IMG/VR virus record: IMGVR_UViG_3300040985_002476
Span: 1-24,974 of that record
Reading direction: 5' to 3' (one strand)
DNA length: 24,974 bases
DNA from: a virus
Lineage: Duplodnaviria > Caudoviricetes
Both the position numbers and the translations under genes were made by a program. This document shows, piece after piece, positions 5,956-23,182 of this stretch (position 1 is its first letter; every line of letters starts with the position of its first letter). The notes beneath the pieces are model-generated. The model ran no database searches and was not told the DNA's origin. It saw nothing but the letters and a program-made list of their open reading frames with translations.

Positions 5956-6897
5956 ATGACAATTTCAAACTACCCTAACGGGTTCTTAGATGGCGTAACT
6001 ATACAAGGCGTTCCACTACAAATGACAAACCCGGGCAAGGTGTTTTGGGTCAACGGATCCTCTGTTTTGGCCCCTGGTGGCGTTGGCGGATCAAATGGTA
6101 ATAAAGGAACATACACGCAACCATTTGCGACTATTGATTATGCAATAGGCAAATGTGCAGATAGCCGAGGCGATATTATCTTAGTAATGCCAGGACATAC
6201 AGAAACTATATCAGGTGCGTCAGGTATTGATTTAGACGTTATCGGTGTCGCAATTATTGGCTTAGGCGCTGGAACTTTGCGACCAACTATTAATTACACA
6301 GCAACCGCCTCAACATTCACTATTGCGGCTGCAAGTTGTATAATTCATAATATACTACATACCGGCGGTATAGATGCCGTTGTTTCTCCAATTATTGTCT
6401 CTGCCTCTGATTGTACTATCAGTAACAACGAAATTAGAGATGTAACCGGCCAAATGACTGACGGTGTCGTAACTACAGCCGCAGCAACTAGATTGAAAAT
6501 TCTAAATCATATCCACGATGGAGCATCCGCAGCAGGTACTAATGCAGCGATAGCTATTGTGGGCGGTGATGGTATTGAAATTACAATCGACCGCATGGAT
6601 GGTAACTTTGCCGTTGGCGGGATAGACGTTAGAACGACTGCAACTACAGATTTATTTGTTCACGATGTTAAAACATTCAGGACACGTAATGCAGCCGATA
6701 TATTCTTAGTTGATACAATCACAGCATCAACTGGACAAGTTGGCCCTAACATCAATATTCAATTAGCAGATAATGCCGCTAATATCACAGAAGCAGTAAC
6801 AGGAGCTACCTTCGTAGTACAAGATCCTATTTACGTTGTAAATTTAGCAGGCGAAAAAGGCATGCTTATCAACTGGACAGCCTCAACTGACGCTTAA
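5956..6897 (+). CDS. virion structural protein with beta-helix (pectin-lyase-like) repeats; possible head decoration
   Basis: GSNGNKGTYTQPFATIDYAI...GDIILVMPGHTE cap motif followed by Ile/Thr/Asn-rich beta repeats. Confidence 0.65.
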   Translation: MTISNYPNGFLDGVTIQGVPLQMTNPGKVFWVNGSSVLAPGGVGGSNGNKGTYTQPFATIDYAIGKCADSRGDIILVMPGHTETISGASGIDLDVIGVAIIGLGAGTLRPTINYTATASTFTIAAASCIIHNILHTGGIDAVVSPIIVSASDCTISNNEIRDVTGQMTDGVVTTAAATRLKILNHIHDGASAAGTNAAIAIVGGDGIEITIDRMDGNFAVGGIDVRTTATTDLFVHDVKTFRTRNAADIFLVDTITASTGQVGPNINIQLADNAANITEAVTGATFVVQDPIYVVNLAGEKGMLINWTASTDA

Positions 6898-13500: not shown

Positions 13501-14037
13501 ATGCAAAATTTCCATAAAATAGCGAGTGAACAAAATATAAAACCACTACTGGCGGCCATTATGCGCCAACCTGAGTTATGGAATAAATTAGATATTCGCA
13601 CATTAGGAGATTCTTATCATAGAGAAGCCGATGATATTATTTTAAGGTTTAATGATGTTTTTTCTAGCGAGGATCTAGTTAATAGTCATGAGTCTATAGA
13701 TTACCGTTCTTTCTTTAATCTGGCTCAAGCAAGACCTATAATCTTTGACTTGATGCGCTTTGTGGAAGGGAAGCGCCTTGGTAGGGTTGTTATTACTAGG
13801 TTAAGCCCGGGGCAGCGAATTTATGCTCATACAGATAGCGTGAGTCAAACTGATTATTATGATAGGTATCATGTAACTTTGCAAAATGCAGAGGGGTCAA
13901 TATTTAGGGCTGGCGATGAAACTATATGTATGCAGCCCGGAGATATATACTGGTTTAACAATGCAGTAGAGCATGAGGTTATTAATAATAGTTATGAGGA
14001 TAGGATTACTATGATAATTGATATTTGTTCAAAATGA
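13501..14037 (+). CDS. aspartyl/asparaginyl beta-hydroxylase family 2OG-Fe(II) oxygenase
   Basis: L.PG..IYAHTD (HxD), RYHVTL, GDIYWFNN...HEVIN and DRITMIID. Confidence 0.85.
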   Translation: MQNFHKIASEQNIKPLLAAIMRQPELWNKLDIRTLGDSYHREADDIILRFNDVFSSEDLVNSHESIDYRSFFNLAQARPIIFDLMRFVEGKRLGRVVITRLSPGQRIYAHTDSVSQTDYYDRYHVTLQNAEGSIFRAGDETICMQPGDIYWFNNAVEHEVINNSYEDRITMIIDICSK

Positions 14038-14495
14038 GTGACATAACTTTTCAAGTTGAAAATTGGTTTTCTTGTAGGAAGAAAATGGAGTGGCTTTTCC
14101 CGATACATTGGGAAGAGGTAGGAGTCTATAAGGATAAAATTAAATTAAACTTTAATGACGAAGAATATAATCGACTTGCAGAGCAGGGCAATCTTGTAAT
14201 AGTCACGGCGCGAGATAAAGAGAAAATCGTAGGGTATCATTGGAGTTTTTTAAAACATCATATCAGATATAAGGATAGCTTAACAGCTACAACGGATGTG
14301 TTCTTCTTACACCCTGATTATAGGAAGGGTTTTAATGGGATTAATCTTTTTAAATTTGTTGAGAAAACCTTAAAAGATATGGGTGTCGAGAGGATGGTGA
14401 CAGGCTTTAAAATCAGTCATGATAAAAGCAAAATATTTGAATATCTTAATTGGGATAGACAAGAAATAATTTATACAAAATATATAGGGGAATAA
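14034..14495 (+). CDS. GNAT-family acetyltransferase
   Basis: DVFFLHPDYRKGFNGINLF acetyl-CoA binding motif; ATG 14034 overlaps the upstream TGA. Confidence 0.8.
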   Translation: MSDITFQVENWFSCRKKMEWLFPIHWEEVGVYKDKIKLNFNDEEYNRLAEQGNLVIVTARDKEKIVGYHWSFLKHHIRYKDSLTATTDVFFLHPDYRKGFNGINLFKFVEKTLKDMGVERMVTGFKISHDKSKIFEYLNWDRQEIIYTKYIGE

Positions 14496-15200: not shown

Positions 15201-16433
15201 ATGACAAGATATTTACCAGAAGCAAGGTCCGTTAATGCATTAGGGGCTTTTAAGCAAGGGCAAGAAATAAGGTCTAATCAATTAGCCATTAAAGCACAGG
15301 AGCAACAACTAGATAAAAAAAACTATCTAGAAGGCTTATGGCAAGGTGTTGCTGGTGGTAATCAAAATGCGATAAACCGCCTAAAAGTAGAAGATCCTGC
15401 AAAGATGAAAACTTATTTATCTTTACAACATAGTGGTGAACAACAGGCCAAAGAGACACAAGAAAGAGATGTTAAGTATATGGGGCAAATAGCCGCGACT
15501 GTACTTAATTCAGCACCAGAAGACAAAGCCGCAGCTTGGGAGATGGGGTTAGGTTTAGCAGAGAACGCAGGGAAAGATGTTAGTGAACTTCCTCAGAAAT
15601 ACACTCCTGAAAGTGCTCCGCAAATAGATCAGTTATTAAACTTCTTAGTTAATCAATCTAGGGATGTTAAAGATATTATCGGTAACGATCCCTCTGCACC
15701 TACTGCATCTTCATCGGATCCCTCCGCTGTTAGAGAGTATAAGTATTATCAATCCTTATCAGCACCAGAGCAGCAGGAGTTTTTAAATGTAAAAAGAAAT
15801 ATCGCAAAAGAAGGGGTAAGATTTACAGAGGAGGGTAATATTGAGACTATACCGGGGATATTAGAAGCTAAAAGCGGAATAGAAGAGGCAAAAAAGCGGG
15901 GGGCTGATACTGGAAAATTAGATGTTGAAAGACGCAAGAATTTAGTCACAGCAAGCTCTGCATTAAAATCTCTAGAGAGTAAATCAAAAGTAGTAACCGA
16001 CACTATTGATAAGGCGTTGGATACTATTAATATATTTTCCACGGGATACGGCTCTTGGTTCGATTTCGTGCCTAATACAGATGCTCGTAAACTTAAAAAC
16101 TATATTGATACCATAAAAGCAAATGTAGGTTTTGATAAATTGCAACAGATGCGTGATAACTCCCCAACTGGAGGAGCTTTAGGGCAAGTTTCAGAATTGG
16201 AAAACAAATTACTACAAGCCGTCAATGGTTCGTTAGACCCGGGGCAAAGAGACCAATTAGAGGAGAATTTAAAAGTAATAAAAGAATTCTACCCCCAACT
16301 TGTAGGAGAAAGGAAATTGGCATTTGAGGCTGATTATGGCCAATATATACCGGATAGAAAAAAACCTAATACAATTGATTTGCCGAGATTTAAAGACAAA
16401 GAAGAGCTAACTAAAAAATATAATTTAGATTAA
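15201..16433 (+). CDS. second ejection (internal virion) protein, gp20 position
   Basis: Start moved to ATG 15201; helical and Gln-rich; IKANVGFDKLQQMRDNSPTGGALGQVSELEN motif; synteny. Confidence 0.7.
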   Translation: MTRYLPEARSVNALGAFKQGQEIRSNQLAIKAQEQQLDKKNYLEGLWQGVAGGNQNAINRLKVEDPAKMKTYLSLQHSGEQQAKETQERDVKYMGQIAATVLNSAPEDKAAAWEMGLGLAENAGKDVSELPQKYTPESAPQIDQLLNFLVNQSRDVKDIIGNDPSAPTASSSDPSAVREYKYYQSLSAPEQQEFLNVKRNIAKEGVRFTEEGNIETIPGILEAKSGIEEAKKRGADTGKLDVERRKNLVTASSALKSLESKSKVVTDTIDKALDTINIFSTGYGSWFDFVPNTDARKLKNYIDTIKANVGFDKLQQMRDNSPTGGALGQVSELENKLLQAVNGSLDPGQRDQLEENLKVIKEFYPQLVGERKLAFEADYGQYIPDRKKPNTIDLPRFKDKEELTKKYNLD

Positions 16434-18355
16434 TGAGAGATATTTCAATTGTAAAAGGCAATATCCGCAAAATGATAGATGCTGGTGCTCCAGAGAGTGA
16501 TATTGACAAATATATTGTTTCTGAGGGGCATTCTTTAGAGGGCTTGAAAAAGACAAAAGAACCAGCGGATAGAAAAATTGGCAAAACAGAGGCCGCTATT
16601 ATTGGTGCTGGTAAAGGATACAGCTTTGGCTTCGGAGATGAACTTGTAGCGGCAGCGGCCACGCCTACTATTTACGCCGGTAGTAGAATAGCGGAAGCTT
16701 TTGGAGGCGATACAAAAGGCTTAGCAGACCAAACCCTTAAAGAGACCTACAAGCAAGAGAGGGATAAGGGGCGAGCTGAAATATCGGAGGCAGAAAAGCA
16801 ACAACCAGGAGCCTTTCTGGCAGGAGAAGTGTCGGGGGGTATAGCCTCACCTATCGCAAGAGGTGCGGCAGGCTTAAAGGGTGGTGCAAAAATTGGTGCT
16901 ATCACAGGTGCAGGTTACTCAGAGGCAGATACAGACGCGGGATTAGTAGCTGATACAATAGTAGGAACCGCCACTGGTGCTATAGGAGGAAAGGTACTTG
17001 ATAAAGTCGGTGGCGCAGTAGCAGGGGTCAAAAACAGTATATCGTCTCTTGTAAAGAGATTTGCAGAAGAGCGAACGGGACAGGATATATTAGGAAGCGC
17101 TATAAAACCAGGGCAAGCTAAAACACTAGCTAACAAACTAGCGGGCAAAGAGGGGCGGCAAGTTTTGCTCCCGGATGTAGCAGGAGACGATTTAGTTGGC
17201 TTTACTAGACTTTTGGCAAAAACTCCTGGCAGTAAGAATACTATTCACAGAGCCTTATCCGATAGGACGGCGCACTCTGCAACTAGGGTTTCCAATTTAG
17301 TAAATAAAGGTATTTCTAATGACGCTTATTTTGGATCGCTAGATAATTTAATAGAAGCTAGATCGACATTATCAGGCCCTCTTTATGAAAAAGCTTATAA
17401 AGAAGGTTTTGATTTAAAAGGTGTTTTAGTAGAGAAAGGGGATAAGGTTACTCTAGGCTCAGTAAAAGAACTTATCGATGATGAAAGAGTTTTTACAGCT
17501 ATAAATAGAGCTCGAAAAGATTTTGGGATAAAAACTCCTGATACTTCGGTTGAAACTTTGCATGGAGCAAGGCAAGTCGTTGATGACATTATCAATCAAG
17601 CAGAGGGTCAAAGTAAAAATAATATGGCTAGATCTTACCGAGAATTAAAAGCCAAAATAAATAAAGTCCTCTACCAAGCATCGCCGACTCTAGAATTAGC
17701 AGATAATACTTTCGCAGGTTACAAGGCTCTTGAAAACGCTCAAGAGTTAGGGGCTAAATTCAGGTTATTGCGACCAGAGCAATTAAAGAAAACATTCTCA
17801 GAATTAACTAGTGGCGAGCAAGATGCTTTTAGAATTGGTGCGAAAGAAAATCTGATGAAGATGATCGGGCAATCAACGGATAGAGTATCAGTAGCAAGGA
17901 AAATATTTGCCATTCCTGATAATAGACGAAGATTAAAAGTTATCTTTAAAGATGAAAAGCAATATAATGATTTCGCTAAAAGGATGTTAGATGAAATCAA
18001 GCTTTTCAATACCAAGGAGAAGGTTTTGGGAGGGTCTAGGACCGATATAAATATAGCTGATGAAGCGGCTATTATAGATAAATTTTCAAGCGGAGCATCC
18101 AGCCCAAAGCTAGCTGTTTTAAGAGCAGTTACCGATTCTGTCAAAAAACGTTATGTTGGCTTAAATGAGGCCAACGCTAAAGAGGTCGCAGAAATTCTGG
18201 TTAGCCCTGAAAAATCAATTCAGGCTTTAAATAACATCTATAAAAAATCTAAGCTAAATGAAGCCTCAAAGAAGGCTACCAAAGACGCTGTAGAGGATAT
18301 TATCTCAAGAATGGGAGTGCTAAAAGGTGGTATTGTGGCGCAAGCAGGGGAGTAA
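16433..18355 (+). CDS. third (large) ejection protein, gp16 position
   Basis: 640 aa; Gly/Ala-rich membrane-type segments (GYSFGFGDEL, GAITGAG) then helical domains; synteny. Confidence 0.7.
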   Translation: MRDISIVKGNIRKMIDAGAPESDIDKYIVSEGHSLEGLKKTKEPADRKIGKTEAAIIGAGKGYSFGFGDELVAAAATPTIYAGSRIAEAFGGDTKGLADQTLKETYKQERDKGRAEISEAEKQQPGAFLAGEVSGGIASPIARGAAGLKGGAKIGAITGAGYSEADTDAGLVADTIVGTATGAIGGKVLDKVGGAVAGVKNSISSLVKRFAEERTGQDILGSAIKPGQAKTLANKLAGKEGRQVLLPDVAGDDLVGFTRLLAKTPGSKNTIHRALSDRTAHSATRVSNLVNKGISNDAYFGSLDNLIEARSTLSGPLYEKAYKEGFDLKGVLVEKGDKVTLGSVKELIDDERVFTAINRARKDFGIKTPDTSVETLHGARQVVDDIINQAEGQSKNNMARSYRELKAKINKVLYQASPTLELADNTFAGYKALENAQELGAKFRLLRPEQLKKTFSELTSGEQDAFRIGAKENLMKMIGQSTDRVSVARKIFAIPDNRRRLKVIFKDEKQYNDFAKRMLDEIKLFNTKEKVLGGSRTDINIADEAAIIDKFSSGASSPKLAVLRAVTDSVKKRYVGLNEANAKEVAEILVSPEKSIQALNNIYKKSKLNEASKKATKDAVEDIISRMGVLKGGIVAQAGE

Positions 18356-18776
18356 TTCTATATAACTCTAGCAATACTAGCGTAAAGACTCCTATTATTG
18401 ACAGAGTTAAAAGGGGTTAAACCCAGAAAATTCAAAGACTTATACTATATCGCTACCAAGCCTGCACAAAAGTCAAGACTTTCATGCAAAGGCCTGCATA
18501 GAAGTCACCCACTTATTTGGCTAGGATGCGGTTAGTCGTTTACGGAAAAAACTGAGAAAAACTGAGGTTTACGGAACTTTTTACGGAATCTCTCAATAAT
18601 AGCAAAGCTAGCAAGGCCAGGCATTTTCGCTAATTGCACTAATTGCCAATAAGTAATTAGTGGAAGTTATTTAACCTGATCAAAAACAGGGTTTATCACA
18701 CCTTTCACACCTTAACCACCATTTTTCCCATCTAGGAAAAATGGTTTAAAACAAACAACCCAAATTAAATAAAAAA
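18356..18776. repeat. non-coding region tiled with heterogeneous short direct and inverted repeats
   Basis: GCCTGCA..AAGTCA x2 plus an inverted copy (18460-18507); TTTACGGAA x3; AAAAACTGAG x2; TAGCAA x2; CTAATTGC x2 plus an inverted copy; TCACACCTT x2; 11-bp perfect inverted repeat at 18718-18745. Confidence 0.85.
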
Positions 18777-20186
18777 ATGACAGAAAGATTTGTTCTGCCG
18801 ATTCAGTCGGTATATGATAGCAATGGCGCCCCTTTAGCTGGAGCAAAATTAGAGTTCTTTGAATCAGGAACTAGTACGAACATAGATTCTTATAGTGATT
18901 CAGCTTTAACGACTCCTAATACAAACCCAGTAATAGCAGATGCTAGCGGTAGGTTTAGTGATATATTCTTAGCAGCAGATGATTATAAGGTTACTTTAAA
19001 GACAAGTGCAGATGTTTCTATCTGGTCGGCGGACCCATATACAATAGGAAGTAGTCAAAACTTTATCTTTTTAGGTACATCGAGCGGGACCGGCACAGCT
19101 TACACCTTTGCACCATCTCCAGCCGCTGACTCTTATACAGACGGGGACAGATTTCTTGGTATTTTAAACACGGATAGCACAGGGAGCTTTACCGTAAATA
19201 TCAGTAGCTTAGGCGCGAAAACTATGACCAAAGAGGATGGTTCAGGAAACAGAATTGCGACAATAGCGGGAGACGCACAACAAGCGCAAACTATTGATTT
19301 CTATTATGATGCAACGGCTGGAAATATGGTTTTATTAAATCCTGCTAGGCCTTATGATGTAACAATTGCGAACGACCTGACGGTTACTAATGATTTGACT
19401 ACTGGCGCTACATTATCAGCCGCACAATTTAACGCTACTAGTAGCTCGGAGATAACTATAGTAAGTGGTGTAGCTACTATTACAAGGACTTGGCATACAA
19501 TTGACACAGAGTCCGATGCAAGTACAGATATACTTACGTCTTTTGTAGCGTCAAAAGGAGAAATTTTTACTTTAACACTAGCAAATAGTGCTAGAAATAT
19601 TACTGTAACTCATGGCGCCCCTATTCGCTTAGCAGATGATAAGAACTTTGATTTTAATAGTACTGTAAATACTTATATTACTTTTTTATGCGTAGATGAG
19701 GGTAATGTATGTATTGAAATATCGCGCAATAGAAACATCACAAATACCCCTTTCTTTAATGCTTATTTGGCAGCCAATCAATCAATAACAGCTAGCACAA
19801 TTACATTAGTCAATCTAGATACTGTGGCTTATGAATCAAATTCTTCGAGCTTTGATACTACTAACAAAAGATTTACACCTCAAAAAGCAGGCACTTATTT
19901 AGTCTGCGCGAACTGGCATGACTTTCATGTAGCTAATGGAAAAGAAGCTTATGTTTCTTTAAGAAAGAATGGTGCGATTCTTTTTGCAAAACAACACATG
20001 CTTGGGAGTGGTGGTGCTAGTTATCAAGTGCATTTATCTTGTTCTGGATTAGTTCAATTAAATGGAACAACTGATTATGTAGATATGGCGGTCTATCATA
20101 ATGAAGGTGGTGCTACTAACACAATTGGCGGATCCATGGCTACTTACATGACTGGCTTTTTACTAACAGGTTCAACAGGTTTATAA
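18777..20186 (+). CDS. tail fibre/spike with head-binding N-domain and C1q-like C-terminal domain
   Basis: N-term NGAPLAGAKLEFFESGTST...YSD...NTNPVIADASGR; C-term FFNAY...FDTTNKRFTPQKAGTY...LNGTTDYVD...MTGFL. Confidence 0.8.
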   Translation: MTERFVLPIQSVYDSNGAPLAGAKLEFFESGTSTNIDSYSDSALTTPNTNPVIADASGRFSDIFLAADDYKVTLKTSADVSIWSADPYTIGSSQNFIFLGTSSGTGTAYTFAPSPAADSYTDGDRFLGILNTDSTGSFTVNISSLGAKTMTKEDGSGNRIATIAGDAQQAQTIDFYYDATAGNMVLLNPARPYDVTIANDLTVTNDLTTGATLSAAQFNATSSSEITIVSGVATITRTWHTIDTESDASTDILTSFVASKGEIFTLTLANSARNITVTHGAPIRLADDKNFDFNSTVNTYITFLCVDEGNVCIEISRNRNITNTPFFNAYLAANQSITASTITLVNLDTVAYESNSSSFDTTNKRFTPQKAGTYLVCANWHDFHVANGKEAYVSLRKNGAILFAKQHMLGSGGASYQVHLSCSGLVQLNGTTDYVDMAVYHNEGGATNTIGGSMATYMTGFLLTGSTGL

Positions 20187-20188
20187 CT

Positions 20189-20494
20189 ATGGAATATTTA
20201 ATACAAGAATATCTTAAGTCACATAATGTGACTGCGATTAATGGGGTTGATTATGAGATAAGAGATAATTTAGACGAGAGGGGTGTTTACATATCTAAAT
20301 GGGACATAGATATTGAGCAACCTTCTTTTTCTAAAGAGGATATTATGAGGGCAGATAAATTCTTGATTAATATGAGCAAGAGAATCAATGAATATGGGTC
20401 TATTACTCAACAAATGGAAAATATTATCGAAAATGGCCTTGCCGCAGAACAAGAAAGAGTTTTGACTATAAAGTCAAAATATCCTAAAGAATAA
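20189..20494 (+). CDS. tail fibre assembly chaperone (XkdW-like)
   Basis: DYEIRDNLDERGVYISKWD...QPS motif, directly after the fibre gene. Confidence 0.6.
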   Translation: MEYLIQEYLKSHNVTAINGVDYEIRDNLDERGVYISKWDIDIEQPSFSKEDIMRADKFLINMSKRINEYGSITQQMENIIENGLAAEQERVLTIKSKYPKE

Positions 20495-20823
20495 TGGGTT
20501 TAGATGAAGATCAAAGGGCAACGGTAAAGATTATGTTTTTAGAGAATATGCAAGAGCAACATTTTGAACAAAGGGTTTTGCTTTTGTCAAAAGAGGCTAT
20601 AAAAGAATTTTTATTCTCTCCTATACATAGTATATTAATATTTTGTATTATTAGCTTAGTAAGCTACGTCTCACTAGCCTCTTTGAGCAAGCTCGATACT
20701 CTATCAAGCTCGGTTAATCATTTACAAACTAGCATTCAATTACTTAATGCTTCTTTGACCGTTATGGATGAGAGAACACACAGGACCGAAGAATCTTTGA
20801 TAAAACTAGAGAAACAACAATAA
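20494..20823 (+). CDS. membrane protein, holin-like candidate
   Basis: One hydrophobic segment (ILIFCIISLVSYVSLASL) followed by a coiled coil; lysis-module position. Confidence 0.5.
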   Translation: MGLDEDQRATVKIMFLENMQEQHFEQRVLLLSKEAIKEFLFSPIHSILIFCIISLVSYVSLASLSKLDTLSSSVNHLQTSIQLLNASLTVMDERTHRTEESLIKLEKQQ

Positions 20824-20840: not shown

Positions 20841-21065
20841 ATGATAAAAAACATATCCCAACTAATATTAAATACAGCTCTACGAAGCGTTTCTATAATA
20901 AATAAATTCATTCCTAATCCTGTATTGCAAGCAATAGCCTTAGCCGTGCTAGAGTCTTTAGCTAGAAGCCCTAGAACGCAGTATAAGCCTGATATTGTTA
21001 AGGCTGCTATAAGACAAAGTAATTTAAGTCTTGCGAGTAAAAAAATGTTATCTGAGAGATTATAA
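20841..21065 (+). CDS. small hypothetical protein in the lysis module
   Basis: 74 aa, amphipathic; TAATG-coupled to the next gene. Confidence 0.55.
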   Translation: MIKNISQLILNTALRSVSIINKFIPNPVLQAIALAVLESLARSPRTQYKPDIVKAAIRQSNLSLASKKMLSERL

Positions 21066-21469
21066 TGTTTGATACTTACACTATAAAGCGGCGGGATATG
21101 AAAGAGGTTCTATGGGGCAGCTTTAAAGATCCAACTGGTCTTGAGATTTGCAAAACATTAGAAAATCCTTACCTTGATAATAAACCTTTTTTATCTGCTA
21201 TACCGTGTGGTTTATATAATGTGCGGAAATACACAAGCCCACCAGGAAGCAAAAAAGATTATCGGAATATATGGCAAGTAATAGATGTTCCTGGTCGCGA
21301 CTTGGTATTAATTCATAATGGCAATACGGAGTCCGATACAACGGGTTGTATATTAGTTGGTGAGAAACTCGGGATTTTAAACGATCAACTAGCTGTGTTA
21401 AGCTCTAAAAAAACTTTGACACTTTTGCAGCAACGCTTGCCGGATTCGTTTAAGTTGCGGATTTGTTAA
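21065..21469 (+). CDS. DUF5675-family protein (putative endolysin/peptidase)
   Basis: TLENP...SAIPCGLY...VPGR..VLIHNGN...DTTGCILVG with a conserved His/Cys pair; last gene of the late operon. Confidence 0.75.
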   Translation: MFDTYTIKRRDMKEVLWGSFKDPTGLEICKTLENPYLDNKPFLSAIPCGLYNVRKYTSPPGSKKDYRNIWQVIDVPGRDLVLIHNGNTESDTTGCILVGEKLGILNDQLAVLSSKKTLTLLQQRLPDSFKLRIC

Positions 21470-21931
21470 TTAAAACGGAATTTCATCATCAAACTCATCT
21501 TCTAACTCTTTTTCAACTTTGGAAGCGTGCGGCTTATACTCTTTTTCTGAGTATGCCGATGTGCTAGGTTGCTCATTTGAGCCTTTAGAATCTAATAGCA
21601 CTAGCTTGCCTCCAAACCCTTGTAATACTACCTCCGTAGTATATTTGTCAACACCCTCTTTATCTACCCATTTGCGGGTCTGTAAAGCACCCTCTATATA
21701 AAGCTTAGATCCTTTCTTTGTGTAGTCTTTTACAATTTTAACTAAGTTTTCATTAAAGATTACAACTCTATGCCATTCGGTTTTATCTTTCCTTTCCCCT
21801 GTAGCTTTATCTTTCCATGGTTCACTCGTAGCGATAGATAAATTTGCAATTTCTTTATTATCTTGGGTACTTCTTATATCCGGGTCGTTCCCCAAATTAC
21901 CAATTAATATTACTTTGTTTACTCCAGCCAT
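21470..21931 (-). CDS. ssb: single-stranded DNA-binding protein
   Basis: VNKVILIGNLG.DP, TEWHRVV, IEGALQTRKW and acidic tail DDEIPF. Confidence 0.97.
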   Translation of the reverse strand: MAGVNKVILIGNLGNDPDIRSTQDNKEIANLSIATSEPWKDKATGERKDKTEWHRVVIFNENLVKIVKDYTKKGSKLYIEGALQTRKWVDKEGVDKYTTEVVLQGFGGKLVLLDSKGSNEQPSTSAYSEKEYKPHASKVEKELEDEFDDEIPF

Positions 21932-22338: not shown

Positions 22339-22770
22339 TTAACCATTATTACTCATTAACTGGTCTATTATCCCTTTGCACTCTTTATCTACGTAATCTA
22401 CATTTCTATAAATATTGCTTTCTAAAGAAAAAATCCCATCTAGACCTAAACTAATCACGTCCCCTGCGTGAGAGCAATCAAACCCGATAGCGAAATCAAC
22501 ACTAACACTACTTATATCACCTGCGTAAGTAAGCCCACCATGACAATCTATCTTATAGTCATCATAATTATTTGATATATAGTAGCTGCTAGATTTATCA
22601 ATAACGACATATCCACAAAAATTAATGAGTGAAAAAGGGGTTTCTTCTAAAATAGAGCTGCCACTTAATGCAGATGGTCGGAGTATAAAGTATTCCATTC
22701 CTCTATGATGCCTACGATATAGATTATATTCCTTTTTTATTTCTTCCTTTACGCGTTGTATTGTATTCAT
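22339..22770 (-). CDS. conserved phage hypothetical protein (CGYV / HGGLTY / GFDCxH family)
   Basis: Motifs FCGYV, DCHGGLTY, IGFDCSHAGD and YRNVDYV..EC..IIDQL. Confidence 0.8.
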   Translation of the reverse strand: MNTIQRVKEEIKKEYNLYRRHHRGMEYFILRPSALSGSSILEETPFSLINFCGYVVIDKSSSYYISNNYDDYKIDCHGGLTYAGDISSVSVDFAIGFDCSHAGDVISLGLDGIFSLESNIYRNVDYVDKECKGIIDQLMSNNG

Positions 22771-22772
22771 AT

Positions 22773-22830
22773 TTTTTTATTCAAAATAAATCACATAAAG
22801 ATTTTTTATTCAAAATAAATCACATAAAGA
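22773..22830. repeat. 29-bp exact tandem duplication
   Basis: TTTTTTATTCAAAATAAATCACATAAAGA at 22773-22801 and 22802-22830. Confidence 0.95.
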
Positions 22831-23182
22831 TTTTTTGGGCATTTTAACCTCATGAAAAATTACTAAATTTAACCGCCGCTTGTTGGCGTTTATGAGGTGT
22901 ATTGTAGAAGAAGGATTGTACGGTTAGGAAGAGGTCATAAGTATTTTATATGACTAATAGAAAACCTTATAAATGAACGATTCTAATGCGGTCATAGGTA
23001 TGACCATACTATTTTTTTTCACTCCAATGATCATCAAATTCATACTTTTCCATAGCAGAAGTATATTGAGTTTTAAGCATTTCCTTCATCATCTTCATAT
23101 TCGACTTGCGTTATTTTCATTGCCTTATTTTATTATTGTTTTTTGTAACACTTGCTTAACGCCCGTTAGGGGACTGTGACGG

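Follow-up and report, generated by a model that had tools for sequence, protein, structure and literature searches.

Genomic setting of the intergenic region

The window, by which the whole analyzed stretch of 24,974 nt is meant, is an entire viral record and represents a partial podophage genome. Its genes follow the order portal, GroES-like protein (2421–2747, after the portal gene), major head, head–tail adaptor and closure, three ejection-type genes, and a tail gene, 3' of which SSB, HNH, and recombinase-like genes are located in the opposite orientation. Genes encoding an Asp/Asn beta-hydroxylase-like and an acetyltransferase-like protein lie just 5' of the ejection genes (13501–14495), an arrangement also seen in locus L158. 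The named relatives of the SSB belong to Alphaproteobacteria and Rickettsiales, and an alphaproteobacterial host is likely for this reason. The sequencing runs containing parts of the window were mostly seawater metagenomes, and no RNA run was among them.

A gap of 421 nt (18356–18776) separates the last ejection gene, which ends at 18355, from the tail gene, which starts at 18777. The former (16433–18355, plus strand, 640 aa, PHROG 5880 of unknown function) resembles internal virion or DNA-transfer genes; its product is putatively an ejection protein by position, and it is preceded by genes assigned to PHROG 598 ("DNA ejection") and similar to PHROG 2534. The tail fibre/spike-like gene on the right border (18777–20186, plus strand, 469 aa) matches PHROG 26190 and PHROG 28171, both of unknown function, and its presumed role is derived from its position and from annotated relatives. 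The gap had been described as the only large one in the late operon. It is indeed the largest, but gaps of 193 nt and 175 nt precede positions 5956 and 7816.

The sequence of the gap is supported by contigs assembled from sequencing runs, one of which may be the window's own source sample. A contig of run X1 is nearly identical to 18428–19399 (three differences), and identical or nearly identical contigs of other runs cover 18306–18456 and 18434–18584 (X4), 18486–18636 (X5), and 18626–18776 (X7).

Repeat content of the gap

Local repeat cover was counted from 7-mers that recur exactly, in direct or inverted orientation, at most 45 nt away. It amounted to 36.3% in the gap and to 6.9% ± 4.8% in dinucleotide-shuffled controls, none of which (0/1000) reached the observed value. 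At k = 7, the gap ranked first among all 421-nt stretches of the window; at k = 6, it was slightly outranked by the stretch at 20001. Two further stretches, 20000–20500 and 22500–23000, showed raised local repeat cover as well, with 0.24 for k = 7 and as much as 0.49 for k = 6; the latter stretch contains a 202-nt gap between divergent ORFs.

The repeat excess was restricted to 18460–18745. It persisted in 18508–18716, the part remaining after removal of the two modules identified below (43.5% vs. 5.8%, 0/1000 shuffles). All motifs named in the preliminary description were found at the positions given there. They include GGGTT-A-AACCC (18414–18424), which looks like chance; the 5' part of the gap (18356–18459), where it lies together with one CTATTATTGA (18392–18401), shows no repeat excess (382/1000 shuffles were as high). 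Upstream of 18428, the X1 contig is unlike the window, and the small palindrome is absent from the 30 letters shown; the array and the tail gene have thus moved together in at least one recombinant. The switch at 18428 represents a mosaic boundary within the gap, and the end of the ejection gene of X1 is less than 80% alike. Within these 30 letters, the differences of X1 from the window are distributed in a codon-like manner (7/4/2 by position), a pattern that is not significant and was rejected as a coding signal.

Twelve different direct-repeat families were counted, none with more than three copies. The lack of a common repeat unit claimed earlier was thereby borne out, and the single, regularly spaced repeat unit of a CRISPR or an iteron set is absent from the gap. 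A decayed ORF found no support either: the 15 stop-to-stop frames of at least 20 aa gave no PHROG match at E ≤ 10. No Rfam family matched the window at the gathering threshold, and no sigma-70-type consensus promoter was detected in 18000–19100.

An upstream array of the PDC-S01 type

A search of the modules in bacterial genomes, which the preliminary description had proposed, traced two of them to sources: the array at 18463–18506 was found 5' of one subfamily of PDC-S01 genes (that of L443/L449) and the palindrome at 18718–18745 in dinD-like genes. The array (minus strand) consists of three 12-bp units in alternating orientation (18463–18474, 18477–18488, and 18495–18506) with spacers of 2 and 6 bp and an AGTC-TT-GACT core. 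This unit, with equal spacers, lies directly 5' of the start of an intact gene (L429/L443) and of a broken one (L375/L449). The intact gene in L429 starts three bases downstream of the last of four such units; its 373-aa product comprises an AAA_14 domain, a weak HTH_11 match, and a DUF4143 domain and is assigned by PADLOC to PDC-S01 (E 2e-57). Three units precede the broken PDC-S01 gene copy in L375. The array core and spacers of L443/L449 recur at five more genes, which had been identified solely through protein homology.

The best match of the window array was to L449 (36/45 positions identical, 80%) with a score of 22.5, compared with a control maximum of 13; the fourth unit of the native loci is missing. 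A profile built from seven gene-linked arrays gave a score of 27.0 for the window module and 1.3 for the next window position, and the best score in 200 shuffled windows was 15.5. With the profile of the five homology-only loci, the module scored 17.5, a value reached or exceeded in 1 of 200 shuffles. BLAST of 301 genomes of the class of G001 returned weak matches in 28 genomes, among which locus L180 repeats the three-unit layout, and a second array copy turned up among six genomes of the order of L180. The paired-unit pattern matched three of five genomes, the control pattern none. The 12-mer unit alone was not enriched over the control in the 301 alphaproteobacterial-class genomes (55 genomes with a match); specificity resides only in the paired-unit architecture. 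Genomes G045, G244, and G344 contributed to class-wide tallies alone. Strong repeats (score ≥ 12) were present in 63 of 127 upstream regions of AAA_14 genes and in 4 of 127 shuffled ones. Gene-specific upstream arrays are a trait of this gene family.

No AAA_14-DUF4143 gene follows the array in the window (no tblastn match at E ≤ 1). In the native loci L443 and L449, the array overlaps a TTGACT hexamer, which is followed 16 nt later by CAGAAT. The promoter-like part appears to have been lost in the window, because AGCGAT replaces CAGAAT at this distance. Another contig of run X7 contains a match to exactly 18463–18506 in other flanks (82% over 44 nt); the similarity alone could be due to chance, the coinciding borders less so. 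In viral contigs the array is rare, with three matches, two of which lie within one coding sequence and all of which are devoid of the TGCA part. The viral scans for this module gave 1, 3, and 3 matches, which were read as chance or plain promoters and rejected.

Two observations concern similar sequences elsewhere. In three related marine phage contigs (L372–L374, 1201–1224), a two-unit sequence resembling the PDC-S01 core forms a perfect TTGACT-17-TATAAT promoter. In genome G020, which holds 24 PDC-S01-like matches, a gene-less four-unit array of the PDC-S01 type is accompanied by two other 15-bp palindromes (L180, 1455–1545); this cluster lies between CCA-adding-like and lpxC-like genes.

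A palindrome of the DinD/PDC-S13 type

The palindrome at 18718–18745 has a CATTTT-N12-AAAATG core and is the sole copy in the window. In dinD-like genes, the core is in frame and encodes H-F-S-x-x-G-K-M (general form H-F-x4-K-M). The window palindrome would read H-F-S-H-L-G-K-M-V, as in L052 and L100, and is identical to L412 at 26 of 30 positions. The protein of L019, which carries the palindrome in its gene, has a Bro-N domain and is assigned by PADLOC to PDC-S13 (E 7e-123). A scan of genome contigs (48 of 64 parts) gave at least 126 matches in at least 123 loci. Of the 126 matches listed, 85 fell within dinD-like genes and 5 next to such a gene; for the other 36, no dinD was present in the DNA retrieved. 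The exact-arm pattern occurred at two loci in viral contigs, one of them within a Bro-N gene and reading D-H-F-S-Q-V-G-K-M-V.

The window palindrome retains the core and the inner symmetry and lies outside any dinD-like reading frame (i.e., as an orphan). A tblastn search for dinD homology in its flanks returned the 12-codon site alone (E 0.6). Such orphans were common in a looser scan of viral contigs, which covered 6 of 64 parts and yielded 112 loci (about 1300 stretches estimated overall): 106 of the 112 matches, and 70 of the 73 in loci longer than 1.5 kb, were without dinD in the fetched locus, although flanks of at most 1.2 kb were retrieved and dinD may sit elsewhere on the same contigs. 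The unconstrained inner 12 nt of the viral palindromes were 66.5% self-complementary (25% expected by chance) and shared the consensus of the gene-borne copies. Orphan viral palindromes thus keep the symmetry of real sites, which indicates that phages often carry the DinD site alone. A contig of run X2 has loose ends at 18718 and 18750 and carries the palindrome module in other flanks. The orphan palindromes (L198–L309) are often located right after holin or the last late genes; several occur together in L220 and L268, and in L279 (RhuM-type) and L233 they are found next to other palindromes.

From these comparisons, 18718–18745 and 18463–18506 very probably represent sites of the DinD/PDC-S13 and PDC-S01 types, respectively. 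Both are cut clean of coding flanks. Neither a DinD nor a PDC-S01 gene or remnant was detected in the 25-kb window (tblastn), and the PHROG scan of the 15 gap frames remained empty. A search for solved structures related to DinD-type or PDC-S01 proteins returned no match. The earlier proposal that the gap collects sites for different DNA-binding proteins, including those of autoregulated defence genes, therefore holds for the DinD palindrome and the PDC-S01 array; it does not extend to 18414–18424, which is chance-like, or to five modules for which no source was found.

The remaining repeat modules

The two identified sites, which are unrelated to each other, have 210 nt between them and are accompanied by five further repeat modules. 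The first of these (18538–18588, plus strand) consists of three copies of TTTACGGAA around two copies of AAAAACTGAG with a 10-bp period and belongs to the stretch whose repeat cover was reached by 0/1000 shuffles; pattern and BLAST searches gave chance-level matches only. It is followed at 18589–18617 by TCAATAATAG, the inverted partner of 18392–18401, and two copies of TAGCAA. This module is possibly Fic-promoter-like, as 18578–18609 matches DNA just 5' of a Fic gene (L436/L665) at 26 of 32 positions, in a locus that had itself been found by BLAST of the gap. Two copies of CTAATTGC (9-bp period) with an inverted copy (18630–18662) and two copies of TCACACCTT (9-bp period; 18696–18713, plus strand) gave no match beyond chance. 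Between them, an imperfect inverted repeat, AACCTG..CAGGGTT, is seen in the sequence (18670–18693); by eye it resembles the upstream element of an AAA_14 gene (L613) at 16 of 20 positions, a likeness that did not exceed the control in a scored comparison.

None of the five modules matched any of 174 palindromes from Bro-N, ORF6N, KilA-N, RhuM, and AntA loci, and palindromes of RhuM, ORF6N, KilA-N, AntA, and non-DinD Bro-N genes were rejected as a source (best only 73%). Comparisons with 138 + 25 AAA_14 and 21 Fic upstream regions gave nothing above the control except for 18578–18609. A candidate reading of TTTACGGAA as an in-frame 12-bp repeat of Fic/AlbA-type genes was discarded, since its matches did not outnumber control matches appreciably (five genomes: 4 vs. 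4; 56 genomes: 2 vs. 1). For a resemblance of the 9-bp repeats to iterons of satellites, the fetched loci gave no support. BLAST of 18500–18720 against 161 + 10 genomes gave chance matches within housekeeping genes, and no match of the gap or its pieces to phage and plasmid records was below E 1.

Direct repeats with a 10-bp period were present in the upstream regions of the Fic genes L650, L658, L667, and L671, in a layout like that of the two AAAAACTGAG copies; this resemblance is a lead, no more. Among the Fic genes of five alphaproteobacterial-class genomes (L642–L671), many have gene-specific direct or inverted repeats just 5' of the start, often with a 10-bp period.

The junction in related phages

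Scans based on the ejection-gene alignment yielded 15 viral and 19 metagenome loci, some contigs of which were counted twice and most of which share 36–48% identity. The slot was readable across in 30 of these 34 loci. The bordering genes abut or overlap in 28 of them and are separated by a 93-nt gap in two; an array was present in none of the 30, so that the comparison proposed earlier revealed a junction without such modules. A repeat-rich gap was likewise absent from 15 relatives of the tail gene, and a single-protein scan of viral contigs returned no relatives. Among the viral and metagenome relatives scanned, no second phage with the cassette was found. In two annotated distant phages, small ORFs occupy the slot. 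Because the junction of the relatives is closed and free of the array, the array is, as far as the alignments can tell, a lineage-specific insertion at a normally closed junction.

Possible functions of the array

Our preferred reading, tentative and held with not quite even confidence, is that the gap forms a multi-target cassette of borrowed self-sites comparable to the aba element. Host DinD-type and PDC-S01 proteins would bind the borrowed sites on the phage DNA, and the bound proteins would either be held inactive or treat the phage DNA as "self." That these proteins bind their own sites is suggested by the linkage of site and gene and by their Bro-N and HTH domains. The reading presumes an anti-phage action of DinD and PDC-S01 proteins, a role of the five remaining modules as further sites of this sort, and an advantage to the phage from having them. 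PDC-S13 and PDC-S01 are predicted defence systems only. Titration of an autorepressor is expected to raise, not lower, its expression; a benefit would more likely arise from the inactive site-bound state or from self-marking. The cassette is favored by the fit of the host, since the relatives of the SSB belong to Alphaproteobacteria/Rickettsiales and the PDC-S01 site was found in the same class. Against it, the orphan arrays between housekeeping genes of bacterial chromosomes (L180) fit decay equally well, the contig is partial and cognate genes could lie in its missing part, and arrays of the PDC-S01 type are not common in phages. The broader proposal, that phages assemble polyvalent, protein-free immunity cassettes from self-sites of several unrelated host defence proteins, seems rather doubtful to us. 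It counts DinD/PDC-S13, PDC-S01, and probably Fic-like and other proteins as targets, and the orphan DinD sites in phage genomes would be the single-site form of the same strategy.

The main rival, and a serious one despite being on balance unlikely, is that the array is a functionless relic. The slot would have taken up accessory genes (PDC-S01, dinD, and Fic-like) repeatedly, and these would later have been deleted, leaving their sites behind. Such a history agrees with the small accessory ORFs in the slot of the two annotated relatives, with bacterial genomes in which an array stands without a gene or a site adjoins a broken one (L180, L375, L358), and with the 80% identity and missing fourth unit of the window's PDC-S01 array. 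It is less easily reconciled with the absence of a coding remnant beside either site and with the close packing of the modules, seen in the 43.5% repeat cover of 18508–18716. In addition, the dinD site normally lies mid-gene, so that keeping it alone takes two precise deletions, and orphan dinD sites recur across many unrelated phages. The sites might instead serve as regulatory input. Proteins of the host, or regulators of the Bro-N type specified by the missing part of the phage genome, would then be recruited to adjust how strongly the tail and lysis genes, or an antisense RNA, are transcribed. The position directly 5' of the tail gene, the incompleteness of the genome, the TTGACT hexamer overlapping the native PDC-S01 array, and the TTGACT-17-TATAAT promoter contained in the two-unit sequence of the three marine phage contigs would be in accordance with this, as would the role of Bro network proteins as repressors in satellites (PMC10111431). 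We nevertheless regard it as quite improbable: 18000–19100 is devoid of a sigma-70-type promoter, the hexamer 16 nt after TTGACT is AGCGAT here and CAGAAT in L443 and L449, and the genes abut in 28 of 30 readable relatives, which means that the tail gene can be expressed without it.

A structured non-coding RNA or RNA decoy would explain why the plus strand of the gap folds better than shuffled sequences (z −3.9; −5.3 in a re-run) and why it contains one long-range 14-nt inverted pair (I3, 13/14) between the region of 18392–18401 and TCAATAATAG. The central 209 nt (18508–18716), however, fold no better than shuffles (z −0.5/+0.3), the remaining repeats are mostly direct, an Rfam match is absent, and the two modules with identified sources are accounted for as DNA elements belonging to other genes, all of which makes this explanation very unlikely. 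Even less credit is given to a replication origin or iteron cluster, either the phage's own or captured from a satellite. The direct repeats with 9-, 10-, and 12-bp periods, which we assume to be iteron-like, point in this direction; the lack of a common repeat unit, the location among late genes, the G+C content of 36%, which is similar to that of the rest of the window, and a GC-skew switch near 21000–21500 and none at the gap argue against it.

Comparison with known systems

The closest parallel to the proposed cassette is aba, a short DNA element of the BstA locus that protects phage DNA in cis and, when multicopy, in trans; it is specific to its cognate protein (PMC8585504). Like the identified sites in their presumed role, aba is a short DNA element with a repeat that lies within or beside a defence gene for a putatively DNA-binding protein (KilA-N-like in the case of BstA), to which it is cognate. 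In contrast, aba resides in the bstA locus of the BstA-encoding phage, whereas the window sites are detached from their genes, are grouped, stem from the Bro-N DinD and AAA_14-DUF4143 families, and have no sequence in common with aba. Neither a BstA nor a KilA-N gene was detected among the 35 window ORFs (Pfam, PHROGs), and the CCCGCC repeat is absent from the gap. The cassette would accordingly work like aba without being a member of that family. Cognate aba pairs have been interpreted as preventing exploitation by other phages (Owen et al., 2021; PMC8585504), and the collection of foreign cognate sites, if true, would be a counter-move. A polyvalent cassette would amount to aba in a multiplexed and stolen version.

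The source genes of the two modules belong to the PADLOC classes PDC-S13 (DinD-like) and PDC-S01 (AAA_14-DUF4143), of which the window holds the sites alone. PDC candidates were predicted by genomic embedding (bioRxiv 10.1101/2024.01.29.577857), and the main text of that study names neither S01/S13 nor DNA sites. Cracr (phage crRNA-like) arrays are also phage-borne, multiplexed, protein-free, and derived from autoregulatory circuits of host defence, but they function as RNA: they are transcribed, contain a CRISPR repeat, and depend on Cas proteins for their action (bioRxiv 10.1101/2024.10.29.618823). A shared repeat unit is absent from the window array, which we interpret as a DNA element. No description of such sites or cassettes was found in open-access papers and bioRxiv. 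If the preferred reading is true, the array would reveal a DNA-only counter-defence strategy and provide a handle on two very common, predicted defence gene families. That a phage keeps the sites would then serve as natural evidence for an action of DinD and PDC-S01 proteins on phage DNA, and binding and immunity tests would have ready-made substrates in the sequences of the sites.

In P22-like phages, the accessory slot between the ejection and tailspike genes carries genes such as sieA and immI. The position of the window array is the same, and small ORFs occupy this slot in the two annotated relatives; the window slot differs in having no family-matched ORF, Rfam RNA, or consensus promoter.

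Palindromes were also noted in other loci. Nearly all RhuM, ORF6N, and KilA-N loci (L342–L371, L377–L397) have a 25–34-bp palindrome at a fixed gene position, and L377 carries three extra copies of the ORF6N type outside the domain. In the bacterial loci L092, L109, L116, and L117, three to five variant DinD-type palindromes are clustered within about 700 nt.
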